From contig JBGQGY010000064.1 of assembly GCA_041497675.1 (NCBI GenBank), positions 1-20,698 of the forward strand: a stretch of DNA of 20,698 bases, given 5' to 3'. Below the pieces are notes generated by a model. It did no database searches, was not told the DNA's origin, and was given only the letters and a program-made list of their open reading frames with translations. The translations under genes and the position numbers were made by a program. Below, one piece after another: positions 1 through 14,797 of the stretch (the stretch's first letter is position 1; every line of letters starts with the position of its first letter). This stretch comes from a bacterium. Its GTDB lineage: Bacteria; Sysuimicrobiota; Sysuimicrobiia; Sysuimicrobiales; Humicultoraceae.

Positions 1-1
1 C

Positions 2-226
2 ATGGTCTTCGCGCTCGAGACCTTCTGGCCGGCCGCGGACGGCTGGTCGGCGGCGCGCATCGAAGAACAGCTCGTCGTCACCAAGACCGGCGCCGAGGTT
101 ATCACGCGCTTCCCCGCCGAGCGGCTGCTGGTGGCCGGGCAACGCTACTACACCGCGACGGGGCCGCTGCCCACCACGCGCGAAACGCAGTCGAACCTGA
201 ACAACCCGATGGGCGGAGAGGGCTAG
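2..226 (+). CDS. M24 (Xaa-Pro peptidase / pita-bread fold) family protein, C-terminal fragment running off the 5' edge
   Basis: MVFALETFW...AARIEEQLVVTKTGAEVIT matches the M24 C-terminal pattern (GMVxxxE...GxRIEDxxxVTxxGxE), with both Glu metal ligands present. Stop TAG is at 224-226, 3 bp before the next gene. Confidence 0.8.
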   Translation: MVFALETFWPAADGWSAARIEEQLVVTKTGAEVITRFPAERLLVAGQRYYTATGPLPTTRETQSNLNNPMGGEG

Positions 227-229
227 CGC

Positions 230-1417
230 GTGGCGGCGAACGTCATCATGCCCGCGTTGGGCATGGCGCAGGAAACCGGCAAGGTGCTGCGCTGGTTGAA
301 GCGCCAGGGCGATGCCGTCACCAAAGGCGAGCCGCTGCTGGAGATCGAGACCGACAAGGCGACGGTCGAACTGGAAGCGCCCGAATCCGGGACGCTCGCG
401 CAGGTGAGCGTTGGGGAAGGCGAGACCGTCCCGGTCGGCCGCGTGATTGCGAGAATCCTGGCGCCCGGTGAAACGGGCGTCGCGCCGCTACCGGCGCCGG
501 GGCCCGTCGCGTCCCCCGCGCTCCCCTCGCGCGACACACCAGCACCGGCGCGCAGCGCCGCCGGAGCGCCGACCGCGGCCGTGGCGGCTGCTCCTGTCGC
601 CCCATCCGGCCGGGTGCCCGCGTCTCCCAAGGCGCGGCGACTGGCGAAGGAACGTGGCGTCGATCTGGCCGCCATCGCGGGTTCGGGTCCGGCGGGCGCG
701 GTGCTGGCGGATGACGTGCTGATGGCGCAGGCCGCCCCGGCGATGAGCACCGTCTGGCGGCTGATGGCCGAACGGACGACCCACTCCTGGACCACGGTCC
801 CGCACTTCTTCCTCATGAGAGAGGTCGCCGCCGCCGGGCTGATCGCCTGGCGCGACGAACAACACCAGCGATCCGGCGCGGAGATCACCTACACCGACCT
901 CCTGATCGCGCTCGTCGCGGCGGTTTTGCGCGATCATCCCCGCGCCAATGCCCGTTGGGAGCACGGCGCCGTCGTGCTGAACGCCGCGATCAACATCGGT
1001 CTGGCGGTTGCGACACAGGACGGGTTGGTCGTCCCGGTCATCCACGGCGCGGACGATCTCAGCGTGAGCGACATTGCCACACAGCGGCGAGACCTGGTCG
1101 GTCGCGCCCGCGCGGGTCGTTTGCGTCCACAAGACTTGATGGGCGGCACGTTTACGATCAGCAACCTGGGCATGTACGCTATCGACGCGTTCACCGCGAT
1201 CATCAACGCGCCGCAGGCCGCCATCCTGGCCGTCGGACGCATCGCGGATCGCGTCGTCCCTGTGGACGGCCACCCGGCCGTGCGCCCAATGCTGATCACG
1301 AGCCTCTCATGCGACCACCGGGTGTTGGACGGCGCGCGGGCTGCGCAGTTCTTGGAAGCCCTGGCGCACCTGATCGAAGCCCCGACGAGTCTTCACACGG
1401 TAGGAGGCCGCGAGTGA
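230..1417 (+). CDS. Dihydrolipoamide acyltransferase (E2 component of a 2-oxoacid/acetoin dehydrogenase-type complex)
   Basis: One lipoyl domain (EIETDKATVE), an Ala/Pro linker, a peripheral-subunit-binding domain (ASPKARRLAKERGVDLAAIAGSGPAG) and a catalytic domain with GTFTISNLG and the DHRVLDG motif. GTG start. Confidence 0.95.
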   Translation: MAANVIMPALGMAQETGKVLRWLKRQGDAVTKGEPLLEIETDKATVELEAPESGTLAQVSVGEGETVPVGRVIARILAPGETGVAPLPAPGPVASPALPSRDTPAPARSAAGAPTAAVAAAPVAPSGRVPASPKARRLAKERGVDLAAIAGSGPAGAVLADDVLMAQAAPAMSTVWRLMAERTTHSWTTVPHFFLMREVAAAGLIAWRDEQHQRSGAEITYTDLLIALVAAVLRDHPRANARWEHGAVVLNAAINIGLAVATQDGLVVPVIHGADDLSVSDIATQRRDLVGRARAGRLRPQDLMGGTFTISNLGMYAIDAFTAIINAPQAAILAVGRIADRVVPVDGHPAVRPMLITSLSCDHRVLDGARAAQFLEALAHLIEAPTSLHTVGGRE

Positions 1418-2409
1418 TCGTCGACATCCACGCCCACGTCGTCGTCCCCGAGATGACGCGCGACGCCGCGCCGGAAGAGTCCTGGCGCCCGCGTGTCTTC
1501 TGGAGCGACGGCCGCCAGATCGTCGAGACCGGTGGACGCGCCGTCACGGCGGCCGTGCGGGAGTTTGTCCACATCGACGCGGTGCTGCGCGCGCAGGAGA
1601 TCGCGGGGATCGACCAGGTCGTACTGTCTCCCTGGGCGTCGCTGCTGCGCTACGACGCCGGCGACGACGAGGCGCTGCGCATCTGCCGGGTCTACACCGA
1701 GGGTCTGGCACGGATGGCGCAGGCGTATCCCCGTCGGGTCCGCGCGCTTGGGATGGTGCCCCTCCAGAATCCTGATCTGGCCGCCCGTGAGCTCGAGGTC
1801 CTGATGCGGCTCCCGGGCGTGCTCGGCGTGGAGGTCGCGGCGAACGTCCGGGGCACCTATCTCGGAGACGATCGTTTCCGGCCGTTTTGGGCCGCGGCCG
1901 AGGCGACCGACACGCTCGTCTTCATCCATCCGACGACCCGGGGGTTCGACCATCCCGTCTTCGGCGACTACTATCTCACGAATACCGTCGGCAATCCGAT
2001 GGAGACGACGATCGCGGCGGCCCACATGATCATGGCCGGGGTGATGGAAGCGCATCCTCGCCTGCGGGTGGTGCTGGCGCACGCCGGTGGCGCGATCGTG
2101 GCCCTCCGCGGCCGGCTGGAGCACGCGCGTCGCGTCGTGACCTCCGCGGGCACGCGCCTGCGGGAACCCGTCGAGGCATCGCTGCGGCGGTTCTACTTCG
2201 ACACGGTGACGCACGATGTCGACCTGCTGCGCGACCTGATCACCTTCGCCGGCGCGGACCACGTGCTGCTCGGATCGGACTACCCGTTCGACATGGGTCT
2301 GGAGCGGCCGGCCGATCCGGTGCGCGCGCTCGGGCTGCCAGCGCGGGATGAAGAACTCGTGCTCGGAGGCAACGCCACCCGTCTGGAGGCCGCCATTGCG
2401 AGACGCTAA
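1414..2409 (+). CDS. Amidohydrolase-2 family protein (ACMSD-like decarboxylase/hydratase)
   Basis: N-terminal DIHAH (HxH), FIHP, HAGG, FYFDT and LLGSDYPFD motifs. GTG at 1414 overlaps the E2 stop (GTGA), with AGGAGG at 1402-1407. The ORF-track start at 955 is a spurious upstream extension. Confidence 0.9.
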   Translation: MIVDIHAHVVVPEMTRDAAPEESWRPRVFWSDGRQIVETGGRAVTAAVREFVHIDAVLRAQEIAGIDQVVLSPWASLLRYDAGDDEALRICRVYTEGLARMAQAYPRRVRALGMVPLQNPDLAARELEVLMRLPGVLGVEVAANVRGTYLGDDRFRPFWAAAEATDTLVFIHPTTRGFDHPVFGDYYLTNTVGNPMETTIAAAHMIMAGVMEAHPRLRVVLAHAGGAIVALRGRLEHARRVVTSAGTRLREPVEASLRRFYFDTVTHDVDLLRDLITFAGADHVLLGSDYPFDMGLERPADPVRALGLPARDEELVLGGNATRLEAAIARR

Positions 2410-3457
2410 GGTCCGAGCCGCTCTCGAACACTGGGCGCCGCGGTTTGTGGCGCAGGGTATCGACTACAACGACTTTGCCCGCACCGTCGCGGGGGTCGGC
2501 CGTTGGGAGGAGTGGCTGGACGCCTGGGTCGCCACGGCCAACGTGCACGCGCGGCTGGCCCGGGACGCGGAGGCGCAGGGCTGGCGCGTGACGGCGGGCG
2601 AGGCCCACCTGCAGGCCGCCCTCTGCTACCATTTCGCCAATTTCGTGTGGATGGTCGACAAGCGCAAACACCGCGCAGCGGCCAAGAAGGCGGTTGCCGC
2701 GCTGCGATTGGCGCATCGCCTGCTCGACCCAACGGCCGAGCGCGTCGAAGTCCCGTTTGAGAAAACGAAGATGATCGCAAATCTGCGGCGGCCTCGCCAT
2801 GATCGGCCCCCGCTGGTGATCCTCATCCCGGGGCTCGACTCAACAAAAGAAGAGTTCTTCCATTGGGAAAACGTCTTCCTCAGGCGTGGGATGGCGACGC
2901 TCTCGCTCGACGGTCCCGGTCAGGGTGAAACCGGTTACAAGACCCACATCCGGCCCGACTACGAAGTCGCGGTACGCACCATGCTCGACGCGTTGGTCCC
3001 ACGCGCCGACCTGGATCTGTCGCGCGTGGGCGTGGCCGGTGTCAGCCTGGGCGGCTACTACGCCCCGCGCGCGGCGGCATTCGAGCCGCGGATCAAGGCC
3101 GTCGTGACCGTCGGCGGGCCGTACAGCTTTGGCGAGTGCTGGGACGGGGCGCCCTCGCTGACGCGAGAGACGTTCCGGTATCATGCCGGCGCGAGGAGCG
3201 ACACCGCAGCCAAAAAGAAAGCCGCGCTGCTCGATCTCCGCGACGTCCTGCCCAAGGTCAGACAGCCGTTCCTCGTCGTGTTCGGCAAACTCGATCGGCT
3301 GATCCCCTGGCAGCAGGCCGAACGCGTCGCCGCGGAAGCGCCCAACGCTCGGTTGGTCATGTATCCCGACGGCAATCACGTCTGCAACAATATCCCCTAC
3401 AAGTACCGGCCACTGGTGGGCGACTGGATGACGGAGACCCTGGCCCGTGTCGACTGA
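2396..3457 (+). CDS. Alpha/beta hydrolase, 2,6-dihydroxypseudooxynicotine hydrolase-like (candidate C-C hydrolase)
   Basis: GLDSTKEE, RGMATLSLDGPGQGE, nucleophile elbow GVSLGG and DGNHVCNN parallel my recollection of the Arthrobacter DHPON hydrolase motifs (GLESTKEE, DGPGQGE, GRSLGG, DGDHCCHN). Likely TTG start at 2396 with GGAGG at 2385-2389. Confidence 0.85.
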   Translation: MRDAKVRAALEHWAPRFVAQGIDYNDFARTVAGVGRWEEWLDAWVATANVHARLARDAEAQGWRVTAGEAHLQAALCYHFANFVWMVDKRKHRAAAKKAVAALRLAHRLLDPTAERVEVPFEKTKMIANLRRPRHDRPPLVILIPGLDSTKEEFFHWENVFLRRGMATLSLDGPGQGETGYKTHIRPDYEVAVRTMLDALVPRADLDLSRVGVAGVSLGGYYAPRAAAFEPRIKAVVTVGGPYSFGECWDGAPSLTRETFRYHAGARSDTAAKKKAALLDLRDVLPKVRQPFLVVFGKLDRLIPWQQAERVAAEAPNARLVMYPDGNHVCNNIPYKYRPLVGDWMTETLARVD

Positions 3458-3479
3458 CAACCGAAGGAGGGTCTTGACG

Positions 3480-4529
3480 ATGCACAGAGCGCTCTGGACG
3501 TTCTTGTTGGTGCTCGTGATCACCGTCCCGATGACGATCGTCCCCACGGTCGACTCGGCCCCCGCACCCGGGCAGCCGATCTATCCGCCGGAAGGTCCCA
3601 AACGCAAGATCGTCCTGGGGATGCCGGTCGTCCCGCCAAACGTCGTGCACACGCCGATGGCCCTGGCCAAGTTCTTCGGTTTTACCGACAAATTTAACAT
3701 CGACCTGGAGATCAAGAACTTCGAAGGCTCGACCCGCGCGCTTACCGCGGCCATCGCCGGCGACGTCCAGGTCGGCACGCTCGACTGCGTGAACGCCTTC
3801 GGCAACGGCGTCCCGCTGGTCGGCTTCTGGGGCGGTGCGCCAAAACTACCGCTCGTGATGGTCGCGCGCGACCCGATCAAAGACATCAAGGAGCTCAAAG
3901 GGAAGAAGATTGGCATGTCCAGCGCGCCGGGCGGGTTGATCGACAGGATGAACCGCGCCGTGCTGGCGGCCGCCACCATCAAACCCGAAGAGGTCACGAT
4001 CATCCAGACGACGACCGCCGGCCGGGTGCCGTCGTTGGTCTCGGGTCAGACGGATACGGCGATCTTCCACTACGAGCAGGCCAGCCTGCTGCTGCGCCAG
4101 CTGCCCGGCACGCGCGTGATCTTCGACCTGCAAAACGGGCTACCAGATTACCAGTACCACGTCTACTGCGGCATGCGCCAGTTCGTCTACCAAAACCGCG
4201 AGCTGGTCACCGACCTGGTGGCCGCCTCCATCCTGGCGGTGCGTCACGCGGCGAACAACCGCGCCGAGGCGATCAAGGCCCTCGTCACGCTCACCGGTGC
4301 GGCAGAGATGGACGCCGGCTACGCGTACGCGCAGATGATTGCCCGGTGCGTCTGGTCGCGCAACGTCGGGCTCGAGGTCAAGCGGATCGATTGGACCATC
4401 GACTATGCGTTCCAGGGCGGCGAGATGAAACAGAAGTACCCGGGCCGCCAGTTGCTCGACATGAACATCGCCAACGAAGCCCTGCGGCGGGCCGGCGGGC
4501 CCGTGCCGGTGCAGGGAGGATGTCAGTAG
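3480..4529 (+). CDS. ABC transporter substrate-binding protein, NitT/TauT (SsuA/THI5-like) family
   Basis: Hydrophobic N-terminal signal peptide (MHRALWTFLLVLVITV...), IKELKGKKIG motif, AAGGAGG RBS at 3464-3470, and directly followed by ATPase and permease genes. Confidence 0.88.
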   Translation: MHRALWTFLLVLVITVPMTIVPTVDSAPAPGQPIYPPEGPKRKIVLGMPVVPPNVVHTPMALAKFFGFTDKFNIDLEIKNFEGSTRALTAAIAGDVQVGTLDCVNAFGNGVPLVGFWGGAPKLPLVMVARDPIKDIKELKGKKIGMSSAPGGLIDRMNRAVLAAATIKPEEVTIIQTTTAGRVPSLVSGQTDTAIFHYEQASLLLRQLPGTRVIFDLQNGLPDYQYHVYCGMRQFVYQNRELVTDLVAASILAVRHAANNRAEAIKALVTLTGAAEMDAGYAYAQMIARCVWSRNVGLEVKRIDWTIDYAFQGGEMKQKYPGRQLLDMNIANEALRRAGGPVPVQGGCQ

Positions 4530-4530
4530 C

Positions 4531-5301
4531 GTGGCTGCCGGCCAGGTAAAGATCCGGGTCGAGAACGCGTCGCGGATATTCCTGGGCGGTGCGGTCGTGG
4601 CCCTCGAGCGTCTCGATCTGGAGATCTACGAGAACGAGATCGCGTGCATCATCGGACCAAGCGGCTGCGGCAAGACGACGCTCCTCCGTTGCCTGGACGG
4701 CCTGGTGCCCCTGTCTGCGGGGATGATTCGGATTGACGGAAAGGTGGTCACCGAACCTCCGGCCAATGTGGCGGTCGTCTTCCAACACTTCGGCCTCTTT
4801 CCCTGGAAGACCGTGTCGGCCAACACCGCCTACGGGCTGAAGCTGGCGGGCACGCCGCAAGATGCCATCGGGGCGCGCGTCGCGCGGGTCCTGAAACTCG
4901 TGGGATTGGAAGGATTTGAGCAGGCCTATCCCTATCAGCTCTCCGGGGGGATGCAGCAGCGCGTGGGTCTGGCCCGGGCGCTGGCGACCGATCCGGAGAT
5001 CCTCTTGATGGACGAGCCGTTCGCGGCGCTGGACGCTCAGACCAGGGAGATTCTACAAGAAGAAACCCTGCGAATCCTCGAAGAGGAACGCAAGACGATC
5101 GTGTTCATCACGCACAGCATCGACGAGGCCCTGCTGCTCGGCGACCGGGTGATCGTGCTGACCGCGAGGCCGGGCCGAGTCAAACACATCTTGCCGGTGC
5201 CCTTTCCGCGGCCGCGGAAGTTGTCGGCGGTCCGGGCCGATCCGACGTTTGGCGAACTGCGCACGCGCCTGTGGGACCTGCTGCGGCAGGAGATTCACTG
5301 A
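4531..5301 (+). CDS. ABC transporter ATP-binding protein, NitT/TauT family
   Basis: Walker A GPSGCGKTT, signature LSGGMQQR, Walker B LLMDEPFAALD and H-loop ITHSIDEA. Confidence 0.96.
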   Translation: MAAGQVKIRVENASRIFLGGAVVALERLDLEIYENEIACIIGPSGCGKTTLLRCLDGLVPLSAGMIRIDGKVVTEPPANVAVVFQHFGLFPWKTVSANTAYGLKLAGTPQDAIGARVARVLKLVGLEGFEQAYPYQLSGGMQQRVGLARALATDPEILLMDEPFAALDAQTREILQEETLRILEEERKTIVFITHSIDEALLLGDRVIVLTARPGRVKHILPVPFPRPRKLSAVRADPTFGELRTRLWDLLRQEIH

Positions 5302-5313
5302 GCAACCAGGGGG

Positions 5314-6150
5314 ATGCCTGTGGCCGACGCGGCCCTGGAGCTGAGGGAGCGGCAGGCGGTGCAGTTGGCAGCCGCGCAGCTGAGACAGCGGCAACGTTGG
5401 AAGGACCTCGCCATCCGCCTGGGCGGCGTGGCCGTCATCTTGCTGCTCTGGGAAGGCCTGGGGCGCCAGATGAACCCGCTCCTGTTTACGCCGCCGTCGC
5501 AGATCGCCCGGGCGGCCGTCTACGTCGTGGGGTCGGGCGAGCTGTGGAAATACCTGAGCGTGAGCCTGAAGGTCTTCGTGATCGGGATCACCCTCGGAAC
5601 GATCGCGGGCATCGTCATTGGTGTGGCGATGGCACGGTTCCGGCCCCTCGATCTTTCACTCGAACCCTTCATGATCGCCCTCTACTCTACCCCGACGGTG
5701 GCGCTGATCCCGTTGATCATCGTCTGGTTCGGCACCGGCGACAAGGCGAAGTCGGTGGCGATCTTCCTGTTCGCCCTGTTTCCCATCCTGCTCAACACGT
5801 ACCAGGGCGTGAAGAACGTCGACCCGCGGCTGCTGGAAGTGGCGCGGTCATTCCGCAGCAGCGAGCGGGCCCTGTGGCTGGACGTCATCATTCCTGCCGC
5901 GCTGCCGTTCATCATCGCCGGGCTGCGCCTGGGCATCGGCCGCGGGCTGGTCGGCATGGTGATCTCCGATCTGCTGTTGGCCGTCTCGGGTATCGGCTAC
6001 CTGATGGTGCGATACGGGCAGCTCATGCAGATCGACCGGCTGTTCGTCCCGGTCGTCACCCTCTCACTGCTGGGGGTGACGCTGGTCCAGCTCCTGCGAT
6101 GGGTGGAGGCCCGGGTCGCGCCCTGGCAGCATCAGGGGCGCGATGACTGA
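5314..6150 (+). CDS. ABC transporter permease, NitT/TauT family
   Basis: Several TM segments, an EAA-like loop (LLEVARSFRSSE) and the IIPAALPFIIAGLRLG...GIGYL pattern typical of SsuC/TauC permeases. Confidence 0.94.
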   Translation: MPVADAALELRERQAVQLAAAQLRQRQRWKDLAIRLGGVAVILLLWEGLGRQMNPLLFTPPSQIARAAVYVVGSGELWKYLSVSLKVFVIGITLGTIAGIVIGVAMARFRPLDLSLEPFMIALYSTPTVALIPLIIVWFGTGDKAKSVAIFLFALFPILLNTYQGVKNVDPRLLEVARSFRSSERALWLDVIIPAALPFIIAGLRLGIGRGLVGMVISDLLLAVSGIGYLMVRYGQLMQIDRLFVPVVTLSLLGVTLVQLLRWVEARVAPWQHQGRDD

Positions 6151-6170
6151 ACGCTCGAAGGAGGGATCTC

Positions 6171-7445
6171 GTGGCTTCGTACGATTTCAATACGATCCGC
6201 GGCGCGCTCGATAACGGCACGAACTTCGGCAACCTCCACGGATCGCCGTACTACGACGATGCGATCTATGATCGATTTTCCGACGCCGAGCATCGCCGGC
6301 GGTTCGACCTGACGCGCCGGAAGATGGACCGGCTCGGCCTCCAGGGCCTGATCGTCTGCGGCGGGCCCAGCCACTGGTCGTACGGCGGGGGGATGTTCTG
6401 GCTCACGAATCACCGCGAGTGGCACGCGCTCTCGGTCTATCTGTTCGTGCCGCGCGAGGGCGAACCCATGCTGACGTATGGGATGGGCGGTACGCACATC
6501 GAGGCGACGCGCCGGGCGGTGGCGGTCAAGGACGTCCGGCCGGCCGGACGCGGCAACTTTGCCGAGGTGCTGGCGGCGCGCAACAAAGACCAGGGGTTGG
6601 ACCGGGCGCGCATCGGCATCACCGAAATCGATCCCCGCTACGCCGACTTCCTCCCCGTCAACCAGTACCGGACGCTGACCGAACGCCTGCCGGACGCCCG
6701 TCTCGAGTTCGTCACGGACTTCTTCCACGAGTTCATGGTGGTCAAGAGCGCGGAGGAACTCGCCCGCGTCCGCAAGGCCGGCGACCTGGTTGGACGCGCG
6801 CTCTTGGCGGTCGCCGCTGCTGCGAAGCCCGGCGTCACCGAGTGGGAACTGAAGGCCGCGGCGTGCTCCGCGATCCTCGGTGGGGGCGGTGAGTTGGACT
6901 TTTGCATCATCGGATCCACGCCGATGCACGAACCCAAGATGGTCTTTGGCAATCCCCGACCGTCGGGGCGTCGCCTACAAAAGGGCGACATCATCATCAA
7001 CGAGCTCGCGGCCGGCTATGAAGGCTACACGGCGCAATCCGGGGTCCCGATCTGCGTGGGACCGCCGACGGATCAGGTCCGCCGGATGTTCGACGAGATC
7101 GTGCTGCCGGGCTTCAATCTGCTAGCGGTCGAGCTGCGCCCCGGAAACACCTTCGACGCCGTCGCCGAGAAGGCAAAGTTCTTCCGGCAGAACGGGTATC
7201 AATCGCGCCCCACGATCTTGCACAACATCGACCTGGTCACACACGCGCCGGACGTCCGCGTGGGCGGCGCGCACGCCGATCCGGCCGACGCGATCATGAA
7301 GCCGGGGATGACGCTGATGCTCGAGCCCAACCCGATCACGCCCGACGGGCTGCTCGGGCTCTTCTTCGGCCACACCTTCATTATCACTGAGACGGGAAGC
7401 GAGCGGCTGGCGGGCCAGGTGCCGCTGCAGCTCCTGATCGCATGA
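6171..7445 (+). CDS. M24-fold protein (creatinase / ectoine-hydrolase-like) with altered metal-ligand positions
   Basis: Creatinase_N-like N-domain (MDRLGLQGLIV), VKSAEELARVRKAG, KPGVTEWEL, RRLQKGDIII, MKPGMTLMLEP and ITETGSERL. GTG start with AAGGAGG RBS just upstream. Confidence 0.85.
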   Translation: MASYDFNTIRGALDNGTNFGNLHGSPYYDDAIYDRFSDAEHRRRFDLTRRKMDRLGLQGLIVCGGPSHWSYGGGMFWLTNHREWHALSVYLFVPREGEPMLTYGMGGTHIEATRRAVAVKDVRPAGRGNFAEVLAARNKDQGLDRARIGITEIDPRYADFLPVNQYRTLTERLPDARLEFVTDFFHEFMVVKSAEELARVRKAGDLVGRALLAVAAAAKPGVTEWELKAAACSAILGGGGELDFCIIGSTPMHEPKMVFGNPRPSGRRLQKGDIIINELAAGYEGYTAQSGVPICVGPPTDQVRRMFDEIVLPGFNLLAVELRPGNTFDAVAEKAKFFRQNGYQSRPTILHNIDLVTHAPDVRVGGAHADPADAIMKPGMTLMLEPNPITPDGLLGLFFGHTFIITETGSERLAGQVPLQLLIA

Positions 7446-9760
7446 GCACCCCCCAACGCTGGATCGGTCATCCGCTGCGCAGGCTCGAAGACGGCCGCTT
7501 TCTCCGGGGACAGGCGCGCTACGTCGACGACATCGTCCTGCCCGGCATGCTCCACATGGTCATCGTGCGCAGCCCGCACGCGCACGCGCGTCTCGGCGAG
7601 ATCCGAACCGACGCCGTGCTGCGCGCGCCCGGCGTAGTCCGCGTCATCACCGGGCGCGACCTCGCAGGCCGGGTCCACCCGCTGCCGGTCGCGTCCCAGG
7701 AAGGCGTTCAGGTCGAGCGAAGCGCGGCGCACCCGATCCTGGCCGTTGACAAAGTGCGCTACGTGGGGCAATCGGTTGCGGCGATCGTCGCGGAGAGCGT
7801 GACGGCCGCGTTCGACGCGGCCGAATGGCTGGAGGTCGACTATGAGCCGCTCCCGGCGGTCGTCGACCCGCACCGCTCGCTGGAAGGCGGCGTGCTGCTC
7901 CACGAAGCGCTCGGCGGCAACGTCATCGCCCGCTGGAGCCGCACGGGTGGCGACGTCGAGCAGGCTTTTCGCGCAGCGGCGCGGATCGTGAAGGGTACCT
8001 TTCACATCCCGCGGCTGGCGGCCGCGCCCATCGAATCCCGGGCCGAACTGGCCTCGTACGATCCCGGCACCGATCTGTTGACCATCTACTCGTCGACGCA
8101 GGATCCGCACAGGCCCCGCGCCCAACTGGCGCGCGTGCTCGGCCGGCCCGATGATCGGGTGCGCATGATCGTGCCGGACGTGGGCGGGGCCTTTGGCGCC
8201 AAGGGCGCGGTGTCGACGGAGGCCGGGGTTGTGTCGATCGCGGCGATGGATCTCCGCCGGCCGGTCAAGTGGATCGAAACGCGTCGCGAGAACCTGGTGG
8301 CGATGTCGCAGGGTCGGGGTCTCGACGCCGATGTCGAGATGGCCGTCGATGCCGGCGGCCGCATCCTGGGCGTCCGGGGCCGCGTCATCGCCGACGTCGG
8401 CGCGTATCTGTTCCCCGCCACCGGCGGCCCGCTGGTGACCGCGTCAATGCTGTTCACCGGCACGTACGCGATTCCCGCGTCGCAGGTCGAGATGCTCGGG
8501 GTCGCGACGAACAAAGTGCCGACCGCTCCGTACCGGGGCGCCGGGCGGCCCGAGGCCACCTATGTGGTCGAGCGCATGATCGAACTCGTCGCGGCGGAAA
8601 CGGGCATCGACTCGATCGATTTGCGGCGCCGCCATTTCATCCCCCCCGACCAATTCCCGTACAAGACGCCGCTGGGATTTGTGTACGACTCGGGCAACTA
8701 CCGGCAGGCGCTCGACCGCGCCCTGGCCGCCTTCGAGTACGATCGGTGGCGCGACGAACAGCGTCGTGCGCGGGCGCAGGGCCGGTTGTTCGGCGTCGGG
8801 CTCGCCGTCTACGTCGAGCGGGCCGGCGGCCAGTTGTGGGAAAGCGCGGCTGTCGCCGTCGACCCCGGTGGCCGGGTGCTCGTCCGCCCCGGCTCGAACT
8901 CGCACGGGCAGGGACACGAAACCTCGTTCGCGCAGATCGCCGCCGACGCGCTCGGCGTCGATCCCCACACCGTGGTCGTCGAACACGGCGACTCGGCCAT
9001 CGTGCCGCGGGGGGTCGGGACGTTTGGTAGCCGGTCCACGACCATCGGCGGCTCGGCGCTGTGGGTGGCGCTTGGAAAGGTGCGCGAGAAGGCCGCGCGC
9101 ATCGCGGCCCACCTGCTGGAGGCATCGCCCGAGGACATCGAGTGGGGCACCGGGCAATTGCGCGTGCGCGGGACGGACCGCGCCGTGACCTGGCAACAGG
9201 TGACCGCGACGGCCTACGATCCCTCGAAGATCGGCCGCGACATCGAAATGGGGTTGAACGCGTCGGGCTATTTTGCACTGCCCAGCCCCGTCTTTCCGTT
9301 TGGCGTCTACTGCGCGGCGGTCGAGATCGACCGCGAGACGGGGCAATTGCGCATCCTCAAGTTCGTAGCGATCGATGACGCCGGTCGCATCGTCAACCCC
9401 TTGTTGGCCGAAGGCCAGGTTTTTGGTTCTACTGTTCAAGGGTTGGGCGAGTCACTCATGGAGGAAGTCATCTACGACGAGGACGGCCAGCCGCAGACCA
9501 CGACGTTCGCGGACTACGGCATCCCCCGCGCCCCGGATGTCCCTCCGTTGCACAGCGAGTTTCTGGAGACCCCGTCGCCCATCAATCCCTTGGGCGCGAA
9601 AGGCATCGGCGAGTCCGGCTGCATCGCCACACCGGCCACCATGGCCAACGCCGTCGCGGACGCGCTCGCCCCGCTGGGGATCCGCCACGTCGACGTCCCG
9701 TTCACGCCGGCGAAGCTGTGGCGGCTCATCAACGGCGCCGAGGCTCGGGGTCGGTCATGA
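7442..9760 (+). CDS. Xanthine dehydrogenase family molybdopterin-binding large subunit (CoxL/CutL form II-like)
   Basis: IG..LRRLEDGRFLRGQARYVDD, RSPHAHA, DVGGAFGAK, PYRGAGRPEA, SHGQGHET, GTFGSRS and NPLGAKGIGE (catalytic Glu). ATGA overlap with the upstream gene. Confidence 0.95.
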   Translation: MSTPQRWIGHPLRRLEDGRFLRGQARYVDDIVLPGMLHMVIVRSPHAHARLGEIRTDAVLRAPGVVRVITGRDLAGRVHPLPVASQEGVQVERSAAHPILAVDKVRYVGQSVAAIVAESVTAAFDAAEWLEVDYEPLPAVVDPHRSLEGGVLLHEALGGNVIARWSRTGGDVEQAFRAAARIVKGTFHIPRLAAAPIESRAELASYDPGTDLLTIYSSTQDPHRPRAQLARVLGRPDDRVRMIVPDVGGAFGAKGAVSTEAGVVSIAAMDLRRPVKWIETRRENLVAMSQGRGLDADVEMAVDAGGRILGVRGRVIADVGAYLFPATGGPLVTASMLFTGTYAIPASQVEMLGVATNKVPTAPYRGAGRPEATYVVERMIELVAAETGIDSIDLRRRHFIPPDQFPYKTPLGFVYDSGNYRQALDRALAAFEYDRWRDEQRRARAQGRLFGVGLAVYVERAGGQLWESAAVAVDPGGRVLVRPGSNSHGQGHETSFAQIAADALGVDPHTVVVEHGDSAIVPRGVGTFGSRSTTIGGSALWVALGKVREKAARIAAHLLEASPEDIEWGTGQLRVRGTDRAVTWQQVTATAYDPSKIGRDIEMGLNASGYFALPSPVFPFGVYCAAVEIDRETGQLRILKFVAIDDAGRIVNPLLAEGQVFGSTVQGLGESLMEEVIYDEDGQPQTTTFADYGIPRAPDVPPLHSEFLETPSPINPLGAKGIGESGCIATPATMANAVADALAPLGIRHVDVPFTPAKLWRLINGAEARGRS

Positions 9761-10896
9761 AGATCCACAACCTCCGCCTGATCAGCCGGACGCCATACGG
9801 TCCCACCGGCGCGGGGCAGGTGCTCGTCGAGAACGGCTTCGCCTACATCGCGCCGATGAAGGACGTCGGTACCACGATCGTCGACGTACGCAACCCAAAG
9901 GCACCAAATGTTGTCAGCCGGCTGGCCGTACCTGTGAATACACATTCGCATAAGGTCCAGGTCGCCGGCAACCTGATGATAGTTAACCACGAGCGTCTGC
10001 CCTCATATGCCGGCCCCGACTTCGGCGCGGGCGTCGGCATCTACGACGTCTCAGACCCCGCGGCGCCAAAAGCGATCTCGTTCTTTGCGACCGGCGGCAC
10101 CGGGGTACACCGCTTCTGGTTTGCCGACGGCCGGTACGCGCATCTCTCCGCGGGCGCCAACGGCTACAGCGACCAGATCTACCGCATCATCGATCTCGCG
10201 CGGCCCGACCGCCCCGAAGAAATCGGGCGCTGGTGGATCCCCGGCATGTGGACCGCCGGAGGCGAGCGCCCCGACTGGCCGTCGTCGTGGCGCGTGCGGG
10301 TTCACGGCGCGCCCTTCGTCGCCGGCAACCGCTGCTACACGGGCTGTGTCGACTGGGGCTGGGTCATCCTGGACATGACCTCGTGGGCGAAGCCCACGTT
10401 GATCACGAGGCACACCGTCTACCCGCCCTTTGGCGACATGCTGCACACGGCAATGCCGCTGCCGGGCCGCCGCCTGATCGTGACCACGCAGGAGGCGTTG
10501 CGAAACCTCGGCGCCGGCACCGAGCGCGAAAAGTACCTCTGGCTCATCGACGTCCGCGAGGAACGCAACCCGATCCCCGTCTCCGCGTTCCGTGTCGACC
10601 CCGACGGTCTGGCCGAACCGGACTCCCGATTCGGCCCGCACAATATCCACGAGAACCGGCCCGGCAGTCTTCAAAGCGAAGACCGCATCTATCTCACGTA
10701 TTTCGCCGGCGGGCTGCGCGTCGTCGACATCCGCGATGCGATGCGTCCTCGGGAGATCGCCTCGTACGTACCCGACGTCTCGAAGGGTGTGCCCCAATCC
10801 AACGATGTCTTCGTCGATGCCGGGGGATTGATCTACCTCGTCGATAGGTTTGAAGGCGTACTCGACATTCTCGAACACTCCGGAGGACCGCTATGA
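9757..10896 (+). CDS. LVIVD-repeat beta-propeller protein, function unknown
   Basis: Repeated GxxIxDVxxPxxP units (GTTIVDVRNPKAP, GVGIYDVSDPAAP, YRIIDLARPDRP, GWVILDMTSWAKP, GLRVVDIRDAMRP). ATG 9757 overlaps the upstream stop (ATGA). Confidence 0.85.
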   Translation: MKIHNLRLISRTPYGPTGAGQVLVENGFAYIAPMKDVGTTIVDVRNPKAPNVVSRLAVPVNTHSHKVQVAGNLMIVNHERLPSYAGPDFGAGVGIYDVSDPAAPKAISFFATGGTGVHRFWFADGRYAHLSAGANGYSDQIYRIIDLARPDRPEEIGRWWIPGMWTAGGERPDWPSSWRVRVHGAPFVAGNRCYTGCVDWGWVILDMTSWAKPTLITRHTVYPPFGDMLHTAMPLPGRRLIVTTQEALRNLGAGTEREKYLWLIDVREERNPIPVSAFRVDPDGLAEPDSRFGPHNIHENRPGSLQSEDRIYLTYFAGGLRVVDIRDAMRPREIASYVPDVSKGVPQSNDVFVDAGGLIYLVDRFEGVLDILEHSGGPL

Positions 10897-11624
10897 GGCA
10901 AGCACGCATCATTCTCGAGGGATCTGAAGTCGATGCGGTGATCGAAGGCGAGGACGTGATCGCACGTGACGGCCGCCGCGTCTCGCTGGAAGCGGTGCGG
11001 TTTGCGCCCCCGTGTCTGCCCACGAAGGTGGTCTGTGTGGGGCTGAACTACCGTGACCACGCCGCGGAGATGGGCATCGAGATCCCCAAGGACGCGCTGT
11101 TGTTCCTGAAGCCCCCCAGCGCCGTCATTGCCCACGATACGCCGATCCCGTATCCGTCCCATACGCAACGGTTGGAGTACGAAGCCGAACTCGCTGTCGT
11201 GATCGGCCGCACCGCCCGCAACGTCCCGCGGGCGCGCGCGCTCGAGCACGTGTGGGGGTATACAGCGTTCAACGACCTCACCGCGCGGGATGCGCAAAAG
11301 GTCGAGAGCCAGTGGGTACGCGCGAAGGCCTTCGACGCCTCAGCGCCGCTGGGGCCCTGGATCGTCACGGACTTCGATCCGGCCGGGCGTGATGTGATCG
11401 CGCGCGTGAACGGTCACGAGCGCCAGCACGGCAACACGCGCGACCTGATCTTCGACATCCCGACCATCATCGAAATCATCTCAGCGATCATGACGCTGGA
11501 ACGCGGCGACGTCATCGCCACCGGCACGCCGAAGGGCGTCGGACCGGTCATCCCCGGCGACGTGGTCGAGATCGAGATTGGTGGGATCGGAGTGCTGAGA
11601 AACCGCATCGCCGCCCGCACGTGA
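10893..11624 (+). CDS. Fumarylacetoacetate hydrolase (FAH) family protein
   Basis: KVVCVGLNYRDHAAE, FLKPPS, YEAELAVVIG, NDLTARD, WVRAKAFD and GDVIATGTP. GGAGG RBS and ATGA overlap. Confidence 0.95.
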   Translation: MRQARIILEGSEVDAVIEGEDVIARDGRRVSLEAVRFAPPCLPTKVVCVGLNYRDHAAEMGIEIPKDALLFLKPPSAVIAHDTPIPYPSHTQRLEYEAELAVVIGRTARNVPRARALEHVWGYTAFNDLTARDAQKVESQWVRAKAFDASAPLGPWIVTDFDPAGRDVIARVNGHERQHGNTRDLIFDIPTIIEIISAIMTLERGDVIATGTPKGVGPVIPGDVVEIEIGGIGVLRNRIAART

Positions 11625-11629
11625 CTGTG

Positions 11630-11998
11630 CTACGAGCTGGCCTTCGGGCCGTGCTTGGGTTTGGGCATCTCGGGGAACGCGATGAGCCCGCTCTGCCGCT
11701 TACCGGACGCCTGCTTCGTTTGCGGCACGCGTGGGTGGTTGGCGATGTTCATGTCGAGTTTCTTGCCGCACTCGCAGACCATCTTCAGCGTCTCCGACGC
11801 GTCGATCCAGATGTTACCCTGCGACTCGGCGTGCTTCCGCGCAACGTCGACGGCGCCCGCCGCCCGTTCGGCTGCATCCTCGGCCAGCCCCATCTCCCGT
11901 GTGCCGCTGCCCGAGAGTTCGTACATGAGCGCCTTCGGATAGTAGACGGTGTACCGCCGTCCGCATCCACCGCAGGGGAACGTAAAGATCAGCGCCAT
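11630..11998 (-). CDS. Hypothetical 122-aa protein with CxxC...CxC (putative Zn-ribbon)
   Basis: FPCGGCGRRY near the N-terminus and VCECGKKL centrally. GAGG RBS before the ATG, 10 bp downstream of the GNAT stop. Confidence 0.7.
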   Translation of the reverse strand: MALIFTFPCGGCGRRYTVYYPKALMYELSGSGTREMGLAEDAAERAAGAVDVARKHAESQGNIWIDASETLKMVCECGKKLDMNIANHPRVPQTKQASGKRQSGLIAFPEMPKPKHGPKASS

Positions 11999-12008
11999 AG
12001 TTACCTCA

Positions 12009-12506
12009 TTATATCAATTCCAGCACCATGAGGACTTCACGAAGGCTCGGATTCGATGGGAGCAGTTTAGTGTGCGCCGTGTCCATAAACCGTTTCCGTG
12101 TGTACAACGACCTCGCCGCCTGATTTGTCTCGGTCACCCAGAGCTGAACGCACTTGGCGCCACGTCCCCGCGCCCAGTCAATCACTGTTTCCACGAGCAT
12201 AGCCCCTACTCCCAAGCGCCAGCGCGATGGATCCACCCACAGCGAGACAAGTCGTACGATTTCGGAGTAATCCTTGTGGACAAACCCCCGCACCAACCCG
12301 AACCAATGTTCATCCTCTTCCGCGACGAAGATCGCCATCGTTTCTGAGGTTGCAGCTTCCTGAGCGTAGCGTGTCCAATGTTCGGATGGGAGTGCCTGCT
12401 CTTCTTCGAGCGAGGATCCAAACGCGCTTGGCGCATCCGCCAGCGCATTCAAGCGAATCGCCCGAAGTCGCGGCCCCTCGTCGGTCTTGATGCGCCTGAC
12501 GTTCAT
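12009..12506 (-). CDS. GNAT family N-acetyltransferase
   Basis: IRLNALADAPSAFGSS, SLWVDPSRWRLGVG (acetyl-CoA motif A) and LWVTETNQAARSLY. Likely ATG start at 12506, since the longer start at 12572 overlaps the upstream gene. Confidence 0.9.
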   Translation of the reverse strand: MNVRRIKTDEGPRLRAIRLNALADAPSAFGSSLEEEQALPSEHWTRYAQEAATSETMAIFVAEEDEHWFGLVRGFVHKDYSEIVRLVSLWVDPSRWRLGVGAMLVETVIDWARGRGAKCVQLWVTETNQAARSLYTRKRFMDTAHTKLLPSNPSLREVLMVLELI

Positions 12507-12526
12507 TTGACGCAGACCGCGGGATT

Positions 12527-13084
12527 TTACTCGGGCGTTGTTGCCGACATGAGTTTCGCGAGATCGTCCCATCCGTAGGCTAGCTCCTTAATCGTCACCC
12601 CGAAGATCTCGATGAGCTTCTCACGTAACACGCGTCCCCCGAGCATCTCGTAGAATCGGCGGCCGCCGACATTGTCTGCCAGCACCCAGAGCAGCATCGC
12701 CGTGTAGCCGGCCTGCACCAGCCCGTCGAGCGCGGCGTGCATCAGGCGGCGTCCCAGCCCGCGGCGCTGGTGTTCTTCGAGGATGTAGATCGCGTAGAGT
12801 TCCGATTTGTAGACCGGATCGCCGGACGTCTCGCGCCCCGCGCTCGAAAACCCCACGACCTGCCCCGTCTGATCCTGAGCGACAAAAATGAAGTGCCGCT
12901 GCTCGGGCAGGAGCGCCAGCACTTCGCTCCACCCGTGTTCCCGCCGATCGTACGAGAGCCCGGCCAGCCCCTCCGCCGGCAGGGTTCCGCGATATGTCGT
13001 CCGCCAGGCATCGACGTGCACCCTGGCGAGCGCGGGCGCGTCGTTGGCCCATGCCGGTCTGATCTTGATCGTCGGCTCATTCAT
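12527..13084 (-). CDS. GNAT family N-acetyltransferase
   Basis: IRPA..NDAPALARVHVDAWRTTYRG, AIYILEEHQRRGLG and LWVLADN..GRRFYE. ATG at 13084. The ORF-track extension to 13723 is an antisense shadow of the RraA gene. Confidence 0.92.
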   Translation of the reverse strand: MNEPTIKIRPAWANDAPALARVHVDAWRTTYRGTLPAEGLAGLSYDRREHGWSEVLALLPEQRHFIFVAQDQTGQVVGFSSAGRETSGDPVYKSELYAIYILEEHQRRGLGRRLMHAALDGLVQAGYTAMLLWVLADNVGGRRFYEMLGGRVLREKLIEIFGVTIKELAYGWDDLAKLMSATTPE

Positions 13085-13089
13085 ATGTT

Positions 13090-13109
13090 CCCGACAGGTA
13101 CCTTTCGGG
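13090..13109. promoter_or_regulatory. 20-bp near-perfect palindrome (candidate operator) in the divergent GNAT/RraA intergenic region
   Basis: CCCGACAGGT|ACCTTTCGGG: 9 of 10 positions are dyad-symmetric, and it lies 5 bp upstream of the GNAT start codon. Confidence 0.35.
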
Positions 13110-13168
13110 CAAGAGCGTATCCTCCCTGGTGCTCGAGGAAACACGCGTCCCGCCGAGGAGGAAACACC

Positions 13169-13864
13169 GTGCCGTTGTCGCCATCCCAAGTTGAATCTCT
13201 GAGGAAGATCTCGAGCCCTACGATCGCCAACGCTATCGAAACGTTCAAGGTCCGGCCGCGCGAGGCCGGCAACCTTTCGTCTGACATCCGGGGACTCTTC
13301 CCCGAGCTCGGGTCGATCGTCGGCTACGCGGCCACCGGGCTCATCCGCGCCGAGCATGGGCCCGCCGAGGGCCGGCGCGCCAGCACGTTCGCCTACTGGG
13401 ATTACGTCCTCTCGACGCCTGCCCCACGCGTGGTCGTGGTGCACGACCTGGACGACCCGCGCGGTCAGGGCGCGCAGTGGGGCGAAGTGCAGGCCAACAT
13501 CCACAAGGCGTTGGGCTGCGCCGGCGTCGTCACCGACGGGTCGGTGCGCGATCTCGGCGAGGTGCGCGCGCTGGGCTTCCAGTTCTGCGCCGCGCACGTC
13601 TCGGTCTCGCACGCGAACGTCCACCTGGTCGACTTTGGCATTCCGGTCAAAGTCGGCGGCGTGTGGATCCAACCCGGCGACCTGATCCATGCCGATCAAC
13701 ACGGCGTGGTGGTCATCCCCCACGAGATTGCCGGCAAGATCGCTGATGCGGCGGCGAAGATCGAAACCGACGAGCGGCGCATCATCGACACGTGCAAGGC
13801 GCCGGACTTCTCGGCTGAGAAGTTGAAGGCCGTGTACCGCGAAATCCGTCCGGGGATGTATTGA
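13169..13864 (+). CDS. RraA / HMG-CHA aldolase family protein
   Basis: SSPTIANAIE, IVGYAAT, AQWGEV, GVVTDGSVRD and IQPGDLIHADQHGVVVIP. GTG at 13169 with GAGGAGG RBS. Confidence 0.92.
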   Translation: MPLSPSQVESLRKISSPTIANAIETFKVRPREAGNLSSDIRGLFPELGSIVGYAATGLIRAEHGPAEGRRASTFAYWDYVLSTPAPRVVVVHDLDDPRGQGAQWGEVQANIHKALGCAGVVTDGSVRDLGEVRALGFQFCAAHVSVSHANVHLVDFGIPVKVGGVWIQPGDLIHADQHGVVVIPHEIAGKIADAAAKIETDERRIIDTCKAPDFSAEKLKAVYREIRPGMY

Positions 13865-14797
13865 TTACGCGTTCGACGGCGCAGACGATGCGGCCGCGCG
13901 AACCGCGGGAATCCACTCCGTTGCAATGCGCTCCATCATACGCCGGTCCCTGATCCACGAGTAGAGCGGATAGTCGGGATCGGGGTCGCGCAGCCAGAAG
14001 AGGATGAACTCGCTGAACCCCAACTCGCGGTAGCGCCCGATGAAGTCCTGGAACGCGCCGAGCGACGCGTACGGTTCGTCGCGTGTCTGCCCCATCATGA
14101 ACGAGCGCACGATCTCGCGGGGATCGCGCCCCCGCGCCCGGCAGAGCTCGTCGAGCATCGTCCCGCGTTCCCGCGTCACGTCGAGCGCCTCTTGCGGCGT
14201 CAGGTCCCGGCCGCCGTTGGTGTTCCACACGTCGCCGTATGCGGCCGTCACCCCAAGAAGCGCGGGGCTCTTCCCGCCAATCATGATCGGCGGCCGAGGC
14301 CGCTGCACCGGCGGCGGCTGCATCGAGGCGTCCTGGATCCGATAGTACCGCCCCGCAAACGTCGTGCGCCTCTGCCGCAACATTGCGTCGAGCACCGCCA
14401 CGTACTCACGAAACCGACGAAACCGCTCGGGCCGGCCCCAGGGCTCGACCCCTGTCATCGAATGATCCATCGGCGCCCCGCCGGCCCCGATGCCGAGGAT
14501 CAACCGGCCCTCCGACACGTGATCCACGGTGAGCGCCTGTCGTGCCAGCACCGCGGGGTTGCGCAACGTGATCGTCGTCACCAGCGTGCCGACGCGCACG
14601 CGCGGCACCCGCGCCGCGAGCGCTGAAAGGAGCGTCCAGCATTCGAACCACCGGTCGATCGGCCCGCGGGGGTTGACGAAGTGATCGGGCAGCCAGGCGC
14701 TGTCAAATCCCAGGGCCTCGATCAACCGCCAGCGCTCGACCATCGCGGGCCACGGAACGCTCTGCAGGGTGATGATGCCGAAGCGGAGTGGGAACAT
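13865..14797 (-). CDS. Luciferase-like monooxygenase (LLM) class flavin- or F420-dependent oxidoreductase
   Basis: EALGFDSAWLPDHF, LLSALAA..RVRVGTLVT, RNPAVLARQALTVDHVSEGRLILGIGAG and PVQRPRPPIMIGG. AAGGGG RBS. Confidence 0.94.
   Translation of the reverse strand: MFPLRFGIITLQSVPWPAMVERWRLIEALGFDSAWLPDHFVNPRGPIDRWFECWTLLSALAARVPRVRVGTLVTTITLRNPAVLARQALTVDHVSEGRLILGIGAGGAPMDHSMTGVEPWGRPERFRRFREYVAVLDAMLRQRRTTFAGRYYRIQDASMQPPPVQRPRPPIMIGGKSPALLGVTAAYGDVWNTNGGRDLTPQEALDVTRERGTMLDELCRARGRDPREIVRSFMMGQTRDEPYASLGAFQDFIGRYRELGFSEFILFWLRDPDPDYPLYSWIRDRRMMERIATEWIPAVRAAASSAPSNA

Follow-up and report, generated by a model that had tools for sequence, protein, structure and literature searches.

Why would a bacterium line up genes for an importer, a molybdenum hydroxylase subunit and a handful of hydrolases almost without gaps, and what would it degrade with them? 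The question is raised by positions 2-11624 of a 20,698-nucleotide stretch of DNA (the window; contig JBGQGY010000064.1 of assembly GCA_041497675.1, from a Humicultoraceae bacterium of the Sysuimicrobiota), in which eleven co-directional genes, here called g0 to g10, are packed on the + strand. The initial annotation proposed a catabolic pathway for a hydroxy-aromatic or N-heterocyclic compound, running through import, O2-independent hydroxylation, hydrolytic ring opening, C-C cleavage and acyl-CoA formation. We find this interpretation to be partly supported: the gene families, the operon-like look and the co-occurrence of a core of genes stand, but the full eleven-gene set and the details of the route do not. 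In fact, we see about an even chance that a widespread catabolic supercluster, so far uncharacterised, is represented here in a compact form specific to this lineage, and that it works by the class of mechanism proposed below.

The C-C hydrolase, its molybdenum partner and their conservation

The argument starts from g3 (2396-3457, +), an α/β-fold C-C bond hydrolase. Its nearest match in the PDB is 2,6-dihydroxypseudooxynicotine (DHPON) hydrolase (2jbw, E 4e-53), aligned over residues 23-365 with the N-terminal domain included; AntI (E 3e-21) and an Ayg1-like protein (2e-12) match as well. Identity to the DHPON hydrolase of plasmid pAO1 is 34%. The serine (in GVSLGG), aspartate and histidine of g3 that correspond to the triad of 2jbw do not vary among the 18 relatives aligned. 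The pAO1 enzyme is described with a Ser217/Asp300/His329 triad and cleavage after tautomerisation to the diketo form (PMC6122326), and AntI and Ayg1 are described as cleaving C-C bonds of hydroxy-aryl ketones in a retro-Claisen manner (PMC6601290). By analogy, g3 is predicted to cleave a C-C bond of a hydroxy(hetero)aryl ketone.

The family to which g3 belongs is large. Among 8000 proteins scored, at least 7897 match at E<=1e-20, and many are about 70% identical to it, these coming from metagenome-assembled genomes (MAGs) of Chloroflexota, Rokubacteria, Actinomycetota and Armatimonadota. The closest relatives among those listed belong to Dehalococcoidia and Rokubacteria MAGs, and some relatives carry the automatic JGI name "2,6-dihydroxypseudooxynicotine hydrolase". 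Plasmid-borne relatives (33-41% identical for all those listed; 36-41% in Shinella, Rhizobium and Streptomyces) lie in other contexts, and no annotation among those listed gives a lead to their function; the Ensifer record is unannotated. On a plasmid of Haloarcula ordinaria, a g3 relative with 41% identity shares 9 kb (4491-13053) with an M24 gene, an amidohydrolase, two alcohol dehydrogenases and a DMT transporter, so that part of the association reaches the Archaea.

The partner of g3 is g8 (7442-9760, +), the molybdopterin-binding large subunit (MoL) of an XDH/CoxL-family hydroxylase. PF01315, PF02738 and PF20256, that is the a/b hammerhead and two molybdenum-cofactor-binding domains, are all matched at full length. 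The PDB search returns CoxL of Mycobacterium (2.8e-162), KdhL (1.7e-159) and quinoline oxidoreductase (5.6e-142), with identities of 40% to KdhL and 37% to NdhL. The translation contains a PYRGAGR loop with the YRGAGR core of the so-called form II motif, and its GIGESG segment, which holds the catalytic glutamate, aligns with GLGE of KdhL. No NCBIfam cutoff is reached by g8: the top model is the archaeal glyceraldehyde dehydrogenase alpha subunit (692 against 790 bits), and the CO dehydrogenase large-subunit model TIGR02416 gives 603 bits against a cutoff of 991.

Are these two genes kept together elsewhere? A scan of one genome per species for relatives of g3 yielded at least 604 pattern matches, 581 of them confirmed, and the 80 best of these were analysed with 10-kb flanks; counts come from BLAST of the window proteins and of reference locus proteins against all open reading frames (ORFs). 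All 80 loci are MAG contigs and half are truncated; the 40 with at least 9 kb on both sides are called full loci here. The 80 span Chloroflexota, Armatimonadota, Deinococcota, unclassified bacteria and Actinomycetota, the last with many Solirubrobacterales, Gaiellaceae and Thermoleophilaceae. They do not include the source genome, and the best match is 71% identical. A MoL gene of at least 45% identity occurs in 41 of the 80 loci (25 of the 40 full ones). It lies on the strand of the hydrolase in all 41 and no more than 2.6 kb from the hydrolase end in 40 of them, with a maximum of 2.7 kb.

This conservation also bears on the completeness of the hydroxylase. The molybdenum hydroxylation first annotated does find its large subunit in the window, but the enzyme is incomplete there: neither a 2Fe-2S subunit, an FAD-binding subunit nor a flavoprotein is encoded in 2-11624, and CoxM and CoxS (the FAD and 2Fe-2S subunits) are absent from the whole 20.7 kb. 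In 18 of the 41 related loci, CoxM and/or CoxS follow MoL directly, which indicates that MoL belongs to a normal three-subunit enzyme. The CoxM and CoxS of the window's lineage would thus be encoded elsewhere, like kdhMS on pAO1.

The pair does not travel alone. A conserved core comprises six of the eleven genes and recurs around g3 relatives in MAGs of at least four phyla: an M24 gene (M24a; 35 of 80 loci, 27 of 40 full loci), the E2 acyltransferase (30 and 22), the ACMSD-like amidohydrolase (46 and 26), the DHPON-hydrolase-like hydrolase, a second M24 gene (M24b in related loci; 37 and 15) and the CoxL/Kdh-like MoL. At least one of MoL, the amidohydrolase, M24a and E2 is present in 38 of the 40 full loci. 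Even the order of the window, M24a-E2, amidohydrolase, hydrolase, M24 and MoL, recurs, with other genes between, in seven loci (L003, L014, L037, L039, L055, L059 and L071). Thus the co-occurrence expected by the initial annotation holds for about six of the eleven genes but not for the NitT-type transporter, the LVIVD gene and the fumarylacetoacetate-hydrolase-family (FAH) gene (5, 3 and 1 of the 80 loci), which are lineage-specific additions. Family membership, conserved catalytic residues and co-location across phyla are direct observations, as are the gene order and coupling described in the next section.

Other genes are frequent in related loci: a Liv-type binding protein (47 of 80; 33 of the 40 full loci), a CrtI-like FAD oxidoreductase (46; 25), a β-hydroxyacid dehydrogenase (33; 26), an EamA transporter (33; 18), and the E1α (16; 15) and E1β (19; 16) genes of a 2-oxoacid dehydrogenase. 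The canonical order is seen in L071: M24a, E2, Liv ABC transporter, EamA, amidohydrolase, CrtI-like gene, hydrolase, M24b, MoL. The window presents the same series, except that another transporter stands at another place, the flavoprotein and EamA are missing, and the LVIVD and FAH genes are appended. The CrtI/CrtO-like FAD oxidoreductase of L071 (525 amino acids, 8425-10002, between the ACMSD-like gene and the hydrolase) has a Pfam Amino_oxidase domain and scores 274 bits with the CrtO model, whose cutoff is 1000. E1 genes adjoin E2, for example as E1β-M24a-E2 in L039 and as β-hydroxyacid dehydrogenase-E1α-E1β-E2 in L047. Neither E1αβ, the CrtI-like flavoprotein, CoxM/CoxS nor the β-hydroxyacid dehydrogenase is found in the window. 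These absences, together with the gene orders of L039 and L047, suggest that the operon continues upstream, probably with E1 genes.

Accessory genes were clustered on ORFs filtered by third-position guanine-cytosine (GC) content, which misses genes in lower-GC loci (for example L030 and L062) and makes the resulting counts lower bounds. Armatimonadota-type loci add two cupins, a DmpH-like FAH-superfamily protein, an aldehyde dehydrogenase and a CCG protein. Carbon-nitrogen hydrolases in four loci (L004, L009, L013 and L029, those of the Armatimonadota-type L004 and L009 being nitrilase-type) are signs of nitrogen release. A LacI-type regulator occurs in 22 of the 80 loci and a GFO/IDH/MocA oxidoreductase in 11. 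In Solirubrobacterales-type clusters the LacI-family gene, nearest to RbsR, CytR and PurR, is internal and directly upstream of the amidohydrolase or the hydrolase (L042, L046, L048, L060, L065, L068, L070, L074, L077 and L078). The visible part of the window operon has no regulator.

Anatomy of the block and its remaining products

How tightly are the eleven genes joined? The initial annotation gave gaps of 22 nucleotides or less and four 4-nucleotide overlaps, and reading the junctions directly shows this to be exact, with one 14-nucleotide overlap besides. The gaps measure 3 (g0/g1), 22 (g3/g4), 1 (g4/g5), 12 (g5/g6) and 20 (g6/g7) nucleotides. The short overlaps are GTGA at 1414-1417 (g1/g2) and ATGA at 7442 (g7/g8), 9757 (g8/g9) and 10893 (g9/g10), and the long one runs from the TTG start of g3 at 2396 to the stop of g2 at 2409. 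This TTG was set by the 353-residue length of homologues and by a GGAGG 8 nucleotides upstream. GC content is even over the block (0.65-0.71). Terminator-like sites in 1-13000 stand at chance level (6, against a shuffle mean of 6.7), and a promoter scan gave the same outcome. The genes g0 to g10 thus look like one operon, as judged from their packing, with no terminator signal speaking against a single transcript. Its 5' end is cut by the window edge, so that eleven genes is a lower bound. Searches of Pfam, NCBIfam and PDB sequences confirmed all the family names first given to the products.

The block opens with g0 (2-226, +, frame 2, stop TAG at 224-226), of which the window edge leaves a C-terminal fragment of 74 amino acids. 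An E1 subunit was considered for this fragment and ruled out: the sequence is the C-terminus of an M24-fold protein, 64-85% identical to M24 C-termini in 36 of the 80 related loci and 73% identical to M24a of L047. Full-length M24a matches Pfam Peptidase_M24, with DddP as its top NCBIfam model (118 bits against a cutoff of 600). Next comes g1 (230-1417, +, start GTG at 230), which encodes the E2 of a 2-oxoacid dehydrogenase complex, a dihydrolipoamide acyltransferase. This E2 is complete: the lipoyl, E3-binding and catalytic domains are all there (2e-71), as are the motifs ETDKA, with the lipoyl-lysine, and DHRVLDG, a catalytic motif. Its closest NCBIfam models are PDH-type E2s, all under cutoff, and the E1 genes lie outside the visible part, since the window begins inside g0.

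The product of g2 (1414-2409, +) is an Amidohydro_2 protein, an ACMSD-like metal-dependent decarboxylase or hydrolase. It matches PF04909 (2e-36), and its top PDB match is human ACMSD (2e-39); its PDB relatives are decarboxylases of ring acids or of ring-fission products. Aligned to 4ign, it keeps the HxH, His and Asp metal ligands, the catalytic His and the equivalent of R235, and has alanine at the position of R47. In ACMSD these residues serve as zinc ligands, as the catalytic His and as two substrate-binding arginines.

Import is covered by three genes of a NitT/TauT-type ABC importer. The NMT1/THI5-like substrate-binding protein g4 (3480-4529, +, start ATG; an alternative GTG at 3447 would overlap g3) has a hydrophobic N-terminus, matches Pfam NMT1 (1.6e-20) and scores 67 bits with SsuA_fam, against a cutoff of 163; a PDB search with it gave no informative relative and no ligand lead. 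The ATPase g5 (4531-5301, +; Pfam ABC_tran) is closest to taurine and nitrate ABC ATPases, and the permease g6 (5314-6150, +; Pfam BPD_transp_1) to SaoP, SsuC and TauC, in each case under the NCBIfam cutoffs. Weak hints of organosulfur metabolism were set aside as too thin: M24a is nearest DddP, a few relatives of g9 carry SBP56 and the transporter is sulfonate-type.

Between the transporter and MoL lies g7 (6171-7445, +), a creatinase/prolidase-fold M24 hydrolase (M24c) and the positional counterpart of M24b. It matches Pfam Peptidase_M24 (3.7e-24) and reaches no NCBIfam model. Over its full length it is 35% identical to the M24b that precedes MoL, in the same position, in L071, and closer relatives occur in L022 (59%) and L030 (45%); M24c proper was found in 2 of the 80 loci. 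In a low-identity alignment to prolidase 1pv9, the canonical M24 set of five metal ligands (D, D, H, E, E) reads E, Q, H, E, G in g7, so that two of them appear to be replaced. An ESM Atlas search with g7 returned generic "M24 family" clusters only.

Downstream of MoL, g9 (9757-10896, +) encodes a cytoplasmic seven-bladed β-propeller with LVIVD repeats (Pfam LVIVD 3.8e-8; AF2 model with pLDDT 92.9). Its top PDB fold match is the phosphotriesterase of Sphingobium TCM1 (TM 0.70). Among its 3678 relatives, the closest of those listed come from Armatimonadota and from a "Firmicutes" MAG, and every name given by the source among 120 listed reads "hypothetical protein". Invariant columns number 45 and include 6 His, 5 Asp and 6 Glu. 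Taken with the phosphotriesterase-like fold, these invariant residues make an enzyme more likely than a scaffold, and g9 is probably a metal-dependent hydrolase, as judged from the model. The last gene, g10 (10893-11624, +), encodes an HpaG/HpcE-like FAH-family enzyme. PF01557 (FAA_hydrolase) covers positions 1-213 of 214 (2e-70), the HpaG C-terminal model gives 221 bits against a cutoff of 276, and no equivalog cutoff is reached. The PDB search returns 1gtt (1e-65), with matches to acylpyruvases and diketo-acid hydrolases too.

Past the block, a 122-residue ORF (11630-11998, -) converges on g10, 5 nucleotides beyond its stop. It is zinc-ribbon-like, with the cysteine pairs CGGC and CxC, and has no Pfam or NCBIfam match. 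Tandem GNAT acetyltransferase genes follow (12009-12572 and 12527-13159, both -), in the sole stretch of lower GC content (0.605 at 12001-13000). A gene at 13166-13864 (+), RraA-like or 4-carboxy-4-hydroxy-2-oxoadipate-aldolase-like, abuts a convergent gene at 13865-14797 (-) for a luciferase-like, F420-dependent oxidoreductase (TIGR03560, 180 bits against a cutoff of 231), which hints that the host uses coenzyme F420. At 14788-15438 (+) lies the gene of a Pro/Gln-rich protein of 216 residues with one hydrophobic segment and no family match. An amidohydrolase-superfamily protein at 19243-20523 (-), nearest to the Caulobacter-type Xaa-Pro dipeptidase model (268 bits against a cutoff of 500), is the third prolidase-like enzyme of the window, after the two M24 genes.

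A proposed route and what competes with it

How could these products work together? In the route that we envision, the substrate class, the reactions and their order are all our reconstruction. The ABC importer g4-g6 would take up a small polar N-heteroaromatic (or hydroxy-aromatic) compound that carries an acyl and/or a carboxyl substituent. The molybdenum enzyme, with 2Fe-2S and FAD subunits encoded elsewhere, would hydroxylate the ring carbon adjoining the substituent, the oxygen coming from water. The hydroxylated aryl ketone would be a vinylogous 1,3-dicarbonyl, which the Ser-His-Asp triad of g3 could split by a retro-Claisen reaction into a hydroxylated ring and a carboxylic acid. The amidohydrolase g2 may then take off a carboxylate ortho to the hydroxyl, a role we assign because superfamily relatives among its PDB matches do so. 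The M24 enzymes and the propeller hydrolase g9 would cleave C-N or ester bonds, the FAH enzyme g10 would split or isomerise a diketo acid, and an E1/E2 complex would finally turn the resulting 2-oxoacid into acyl-CoA. We take the Mo subunit/hydrolase pair as the functional heart of the cluster, because it is kept in 41 loci of several phyla.

Two features of the route first proposed need to be changed. Hydrolytic ring opening was pure conjecture, and no enzyme of the block is tied to such a reaction. The block itself (2-11624) has no flavin enzyme, and Pfam detects no Rieske, flavin-monooxygenase or ring-cleavage dioxygenase domain in it, but the independence from O2 read from this is not general, with the CrtI-like FAD oxidoreductase in 46 of the 80 loci and cupins in some.

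Which compound would be common enough to be met by so many bacteria? A "hydroxylate, then strip the side chain" route in many soil bacteria might serve a ubiquitous N-heteroaromatic metabolite in place of a plant alkaloid, although this is a long shot. One candidate class would be 6-acyl or 6-carboxy pterins, from biopterin, neopterin and folate turnover. The form-II-CoxL-type enzyme would hydroxylate the ring beside the substituent; removal of this substituent would fall to the DHPON-like hydrolase or the ACMSD-like decarboxylase, and the freed C3 unit could feed a lactaldehyde-dehydrogenase/PDH-like branch. In that case, heterocycle hydroxylases would make up much of what is counted as "form II CO dehydrogenase" genes in soil metagenomes.

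Several observations weigh against a single aromatic route. Identity to characterised enzymes is only 34% for the hydrolase and 40% for the Mo subunit, and g8 stands no closer to Kdh than to CO dehydrogenase or quinoline oxidoreductase. The 80 loci, which score best among 581, are related to each other and not phylogenetically independent. The pathway of the window may depart from the canonical one, since the CrtI-like flavoprotein is missing. The top NCBIfam model of g8, glyceraldehyde dehydrogenase, means that the Mo enzyme could be an aldehyde oxidoreductase, and the LacI, GFO/IDH/MocA, β-hydroxyacid dehydrogenase and lactaldehyde-dehydrogenase-like genes of related loci also fit a polyol or sugar-acid substrate. 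In fact, one can picture a non-aromatic pathway for a polyol, a sugar acid or an amino-acid derivative, in which the α/β hydrolase and the FAH enzyme would cut aliphatic 1,3- or 2,4-diketo acids and E1/E2 would oxidise a pyruvate-like 2-oxoacid. It would suit the match of g10 to 2,4-didehydro-3-deoxy-L-rhamnonate hydrolase (163 bits) and to L-2,4-diketo-3-deoxyrhamnonate hydrolase (PDB 8gsr), the RbsR/CytR-nearest regulators, tartronate-semialdehyde-reductase-like genes and PDH-like E1α of related loci, and the RraA-like aldolase gene 1.5 kb downstream in the window. Yet all structurally characterised relatives of g3 act on hydroxy-aryl or heteroaryl ketones, g2 keeps most of an ACMSD-type active site with ring-acid and ring-fission-product decarboxylases as its relatives, and g8 matches KdhL and quinoline oxidoreductase no worse than any other protein. 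The window holds none of the sugar-type genes, and all these signs could equally point to a polyhydroxyalkyl side chain on a heterocycle. We therefore regard a non-aromatic substrate as unlikely, if worth keeping in mind.

The block might also be a mosaic of two or three independent modules (M24a with E1/E2; amidohydrolase with hydrolase; M24 with MoL-LVIVD-FAH and the transporter). MoL, the amidohydrolase, M24a and E2 all fall within 10 kb in only 4 of the 40 full loci, three partners of the window are rare (the LVIVD gene, for example, being confined to L030, L037 and L062), and the one-transcript status is drawn from gene packing; these points count against one pathway. Moreover, Solirubrobacterales-type loci have an M24a-HIBDH-E1αβ-E2 block divergent from the hydrolase-MoL block, transporter types swap (Liv-type in 47 loci, NitT-type in 5) and accessory genes vary widely. 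Against a mosaic, the modules are adjacent, even if divergent, in loci of Actinomycetota, Chloroflexota, Armatimonadota and Deinococcota, the overlaps of the window cross module borders (g1/g2 by 4 nucleotides, g2/g3 by 14), and M24a sits between E1β and E2 in L039; we find it quite improbable. Could g8 and g3 simply be the KdhL and DHPON hydrolase orthologues of a true nicotine or pyridine-alkaloid pathway? They are the same neighbour pair as on pAO1, their best PDB matches include 2jbw and 7dqx, and some automatic JGI names point that way, but the identities are low and the window has no counterpart of nicotine dehydrogenase, 6-hydroxynicotine oxidase or 2,6-dihydroxypyridine hydroxylase. 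A family about 70% conserved over thousands of environmental sequences from many phyla also makes a tobacco alkaloid unlikely as its common substrate, and we consider this pathway very improbable. Even less credible is a "form II" aerobic CO dehydrogenase with unrelated neighbours, although mycobacterial CoxL is the top PDB match of g8 and its YRGAGR motif earns the form II CoxL label in genome papers. The form I active-site loop is absent, the loop of g8 being PYRGAGR. The window has no coxM, coxS or cox accessory genes, the CO dehydrogenase model stays far under its cutoff, and g8 is translationally coupled to hydrolases on both sides.

Likeness to known systems

How new is the combination? 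A literature search, made without most subscription journals and bioRxiv supplements, found no published description of it beyond the nicotine papers, and the block does not map gene for gene onto a characterised pathway: pAO1 offers only kdhL and the DHPON hydrolase gene as counterparts. Both expectations of the initial annotation are thus borne out.

"Form II" CoxL-like proteins share with g8 the YRGAGR core (PYRGAGR) and the CoxL domain architecture. In papers with the AYRGAGR label, the function of form II CoxL is treated as unclear, and genome surveys label such genes putative CO dehydrogenases. The g8 subgroup differs in being set in a catabolic cluster for an organic compound without cox accessory genes, which argues for an organic substrate. 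For one subgroup of form II CoxL, which surveys often count among CO dehydrogenases, the locus thus supplies a genomic context in which it is coupled to hydrolases of an organic catabolic pathway.

Ayg1 and AntI share with g3 the FrsA-like α/β fold, the N-terminal helical domain and the Ser-Asp-His triad. They are biosynthetic enzymes inside polyketide synthase clusters, whereas g3 stands in a catabolic setting together with a transporter and a Mo hydroxylase. Pyridine-carboxylate pathways, for example picolinate degradation of the PicA/PicC type, follow a related logic: an N-heteroaromatic ring is hydroxylated with oxygen from water, and an ACMSD-superfamily enzyme then decarboxylates the ortho-hydroxy acid non-oxidatively. 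These pathways employ flavin or multicomponent monooxygenases and a ring-cleavage dioxygenase, and are not known to include a DHPON-type hydrolase, M24 enzymes or E2.

The sole experimentally grounded parallel is the Kdh/DHPON-hydrolase pair of pAO1, from Paenarthrobacter nicotinovorans. There, Kdh introduces a hydroxyl on the pyridine ring ortho to the acyl chain, after which the hydrolase cuts the C-C bond between ring and chain (PMC6122326). Within the 31 kb of pAO1 inspected, kdhL adjoins the hydrolase gene, with kdhMS at a distance of 3 kb. Shared with the window are a CoxL-type Mo large subunit encoded beside an FrsA-like α/β C-C hydrolase with a conserved Ser/Asp/His triad, and the separation of the small and medium Mo subunits from the large one. 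The two genes are divergent on pAO1, whereas the window has them co-directional and separated by the transporter and an M24 gene. Near the pAO1 pair there is a carbon-nitrogen hydrolase, as in four related loci but not in the window, and the 31 kb hold no counterparts of the window's M24, ACMSD-like, E2, LVIVD and FAH genes. Conversely, the window has no amine oxidase, FAD monooxygenase or second Mo enzyme, and so does not contain the nicotine-pathway set. A small cupin gene follows the hydrolase in the Armatimonadota-type loci L009, L010 and L014 and on pAO1 (L083, 14950-16396); as a further parallel this was dropped, because the cupins of L014 and pAO1 are dissimilar (E 14) and the resemblance may be coincidental.

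What does the comparison suggest? The operon joins a known hydroxylase/C-C-hydrolase logic to a new, widely conserved set of partners, and its substrate is probably common. With thousands of close g3 relatives, about 70% identical, in uncultured Chloroflexota, Actinomycetota, Armatimonadota and Rokubacteria, it looks like a common and still unnamed soil route for carbon and nitrogen. We envision that the hydroxylase-plus-C-C-hydrolase logic, known only from nicotine degradation, may be a widely reused module.

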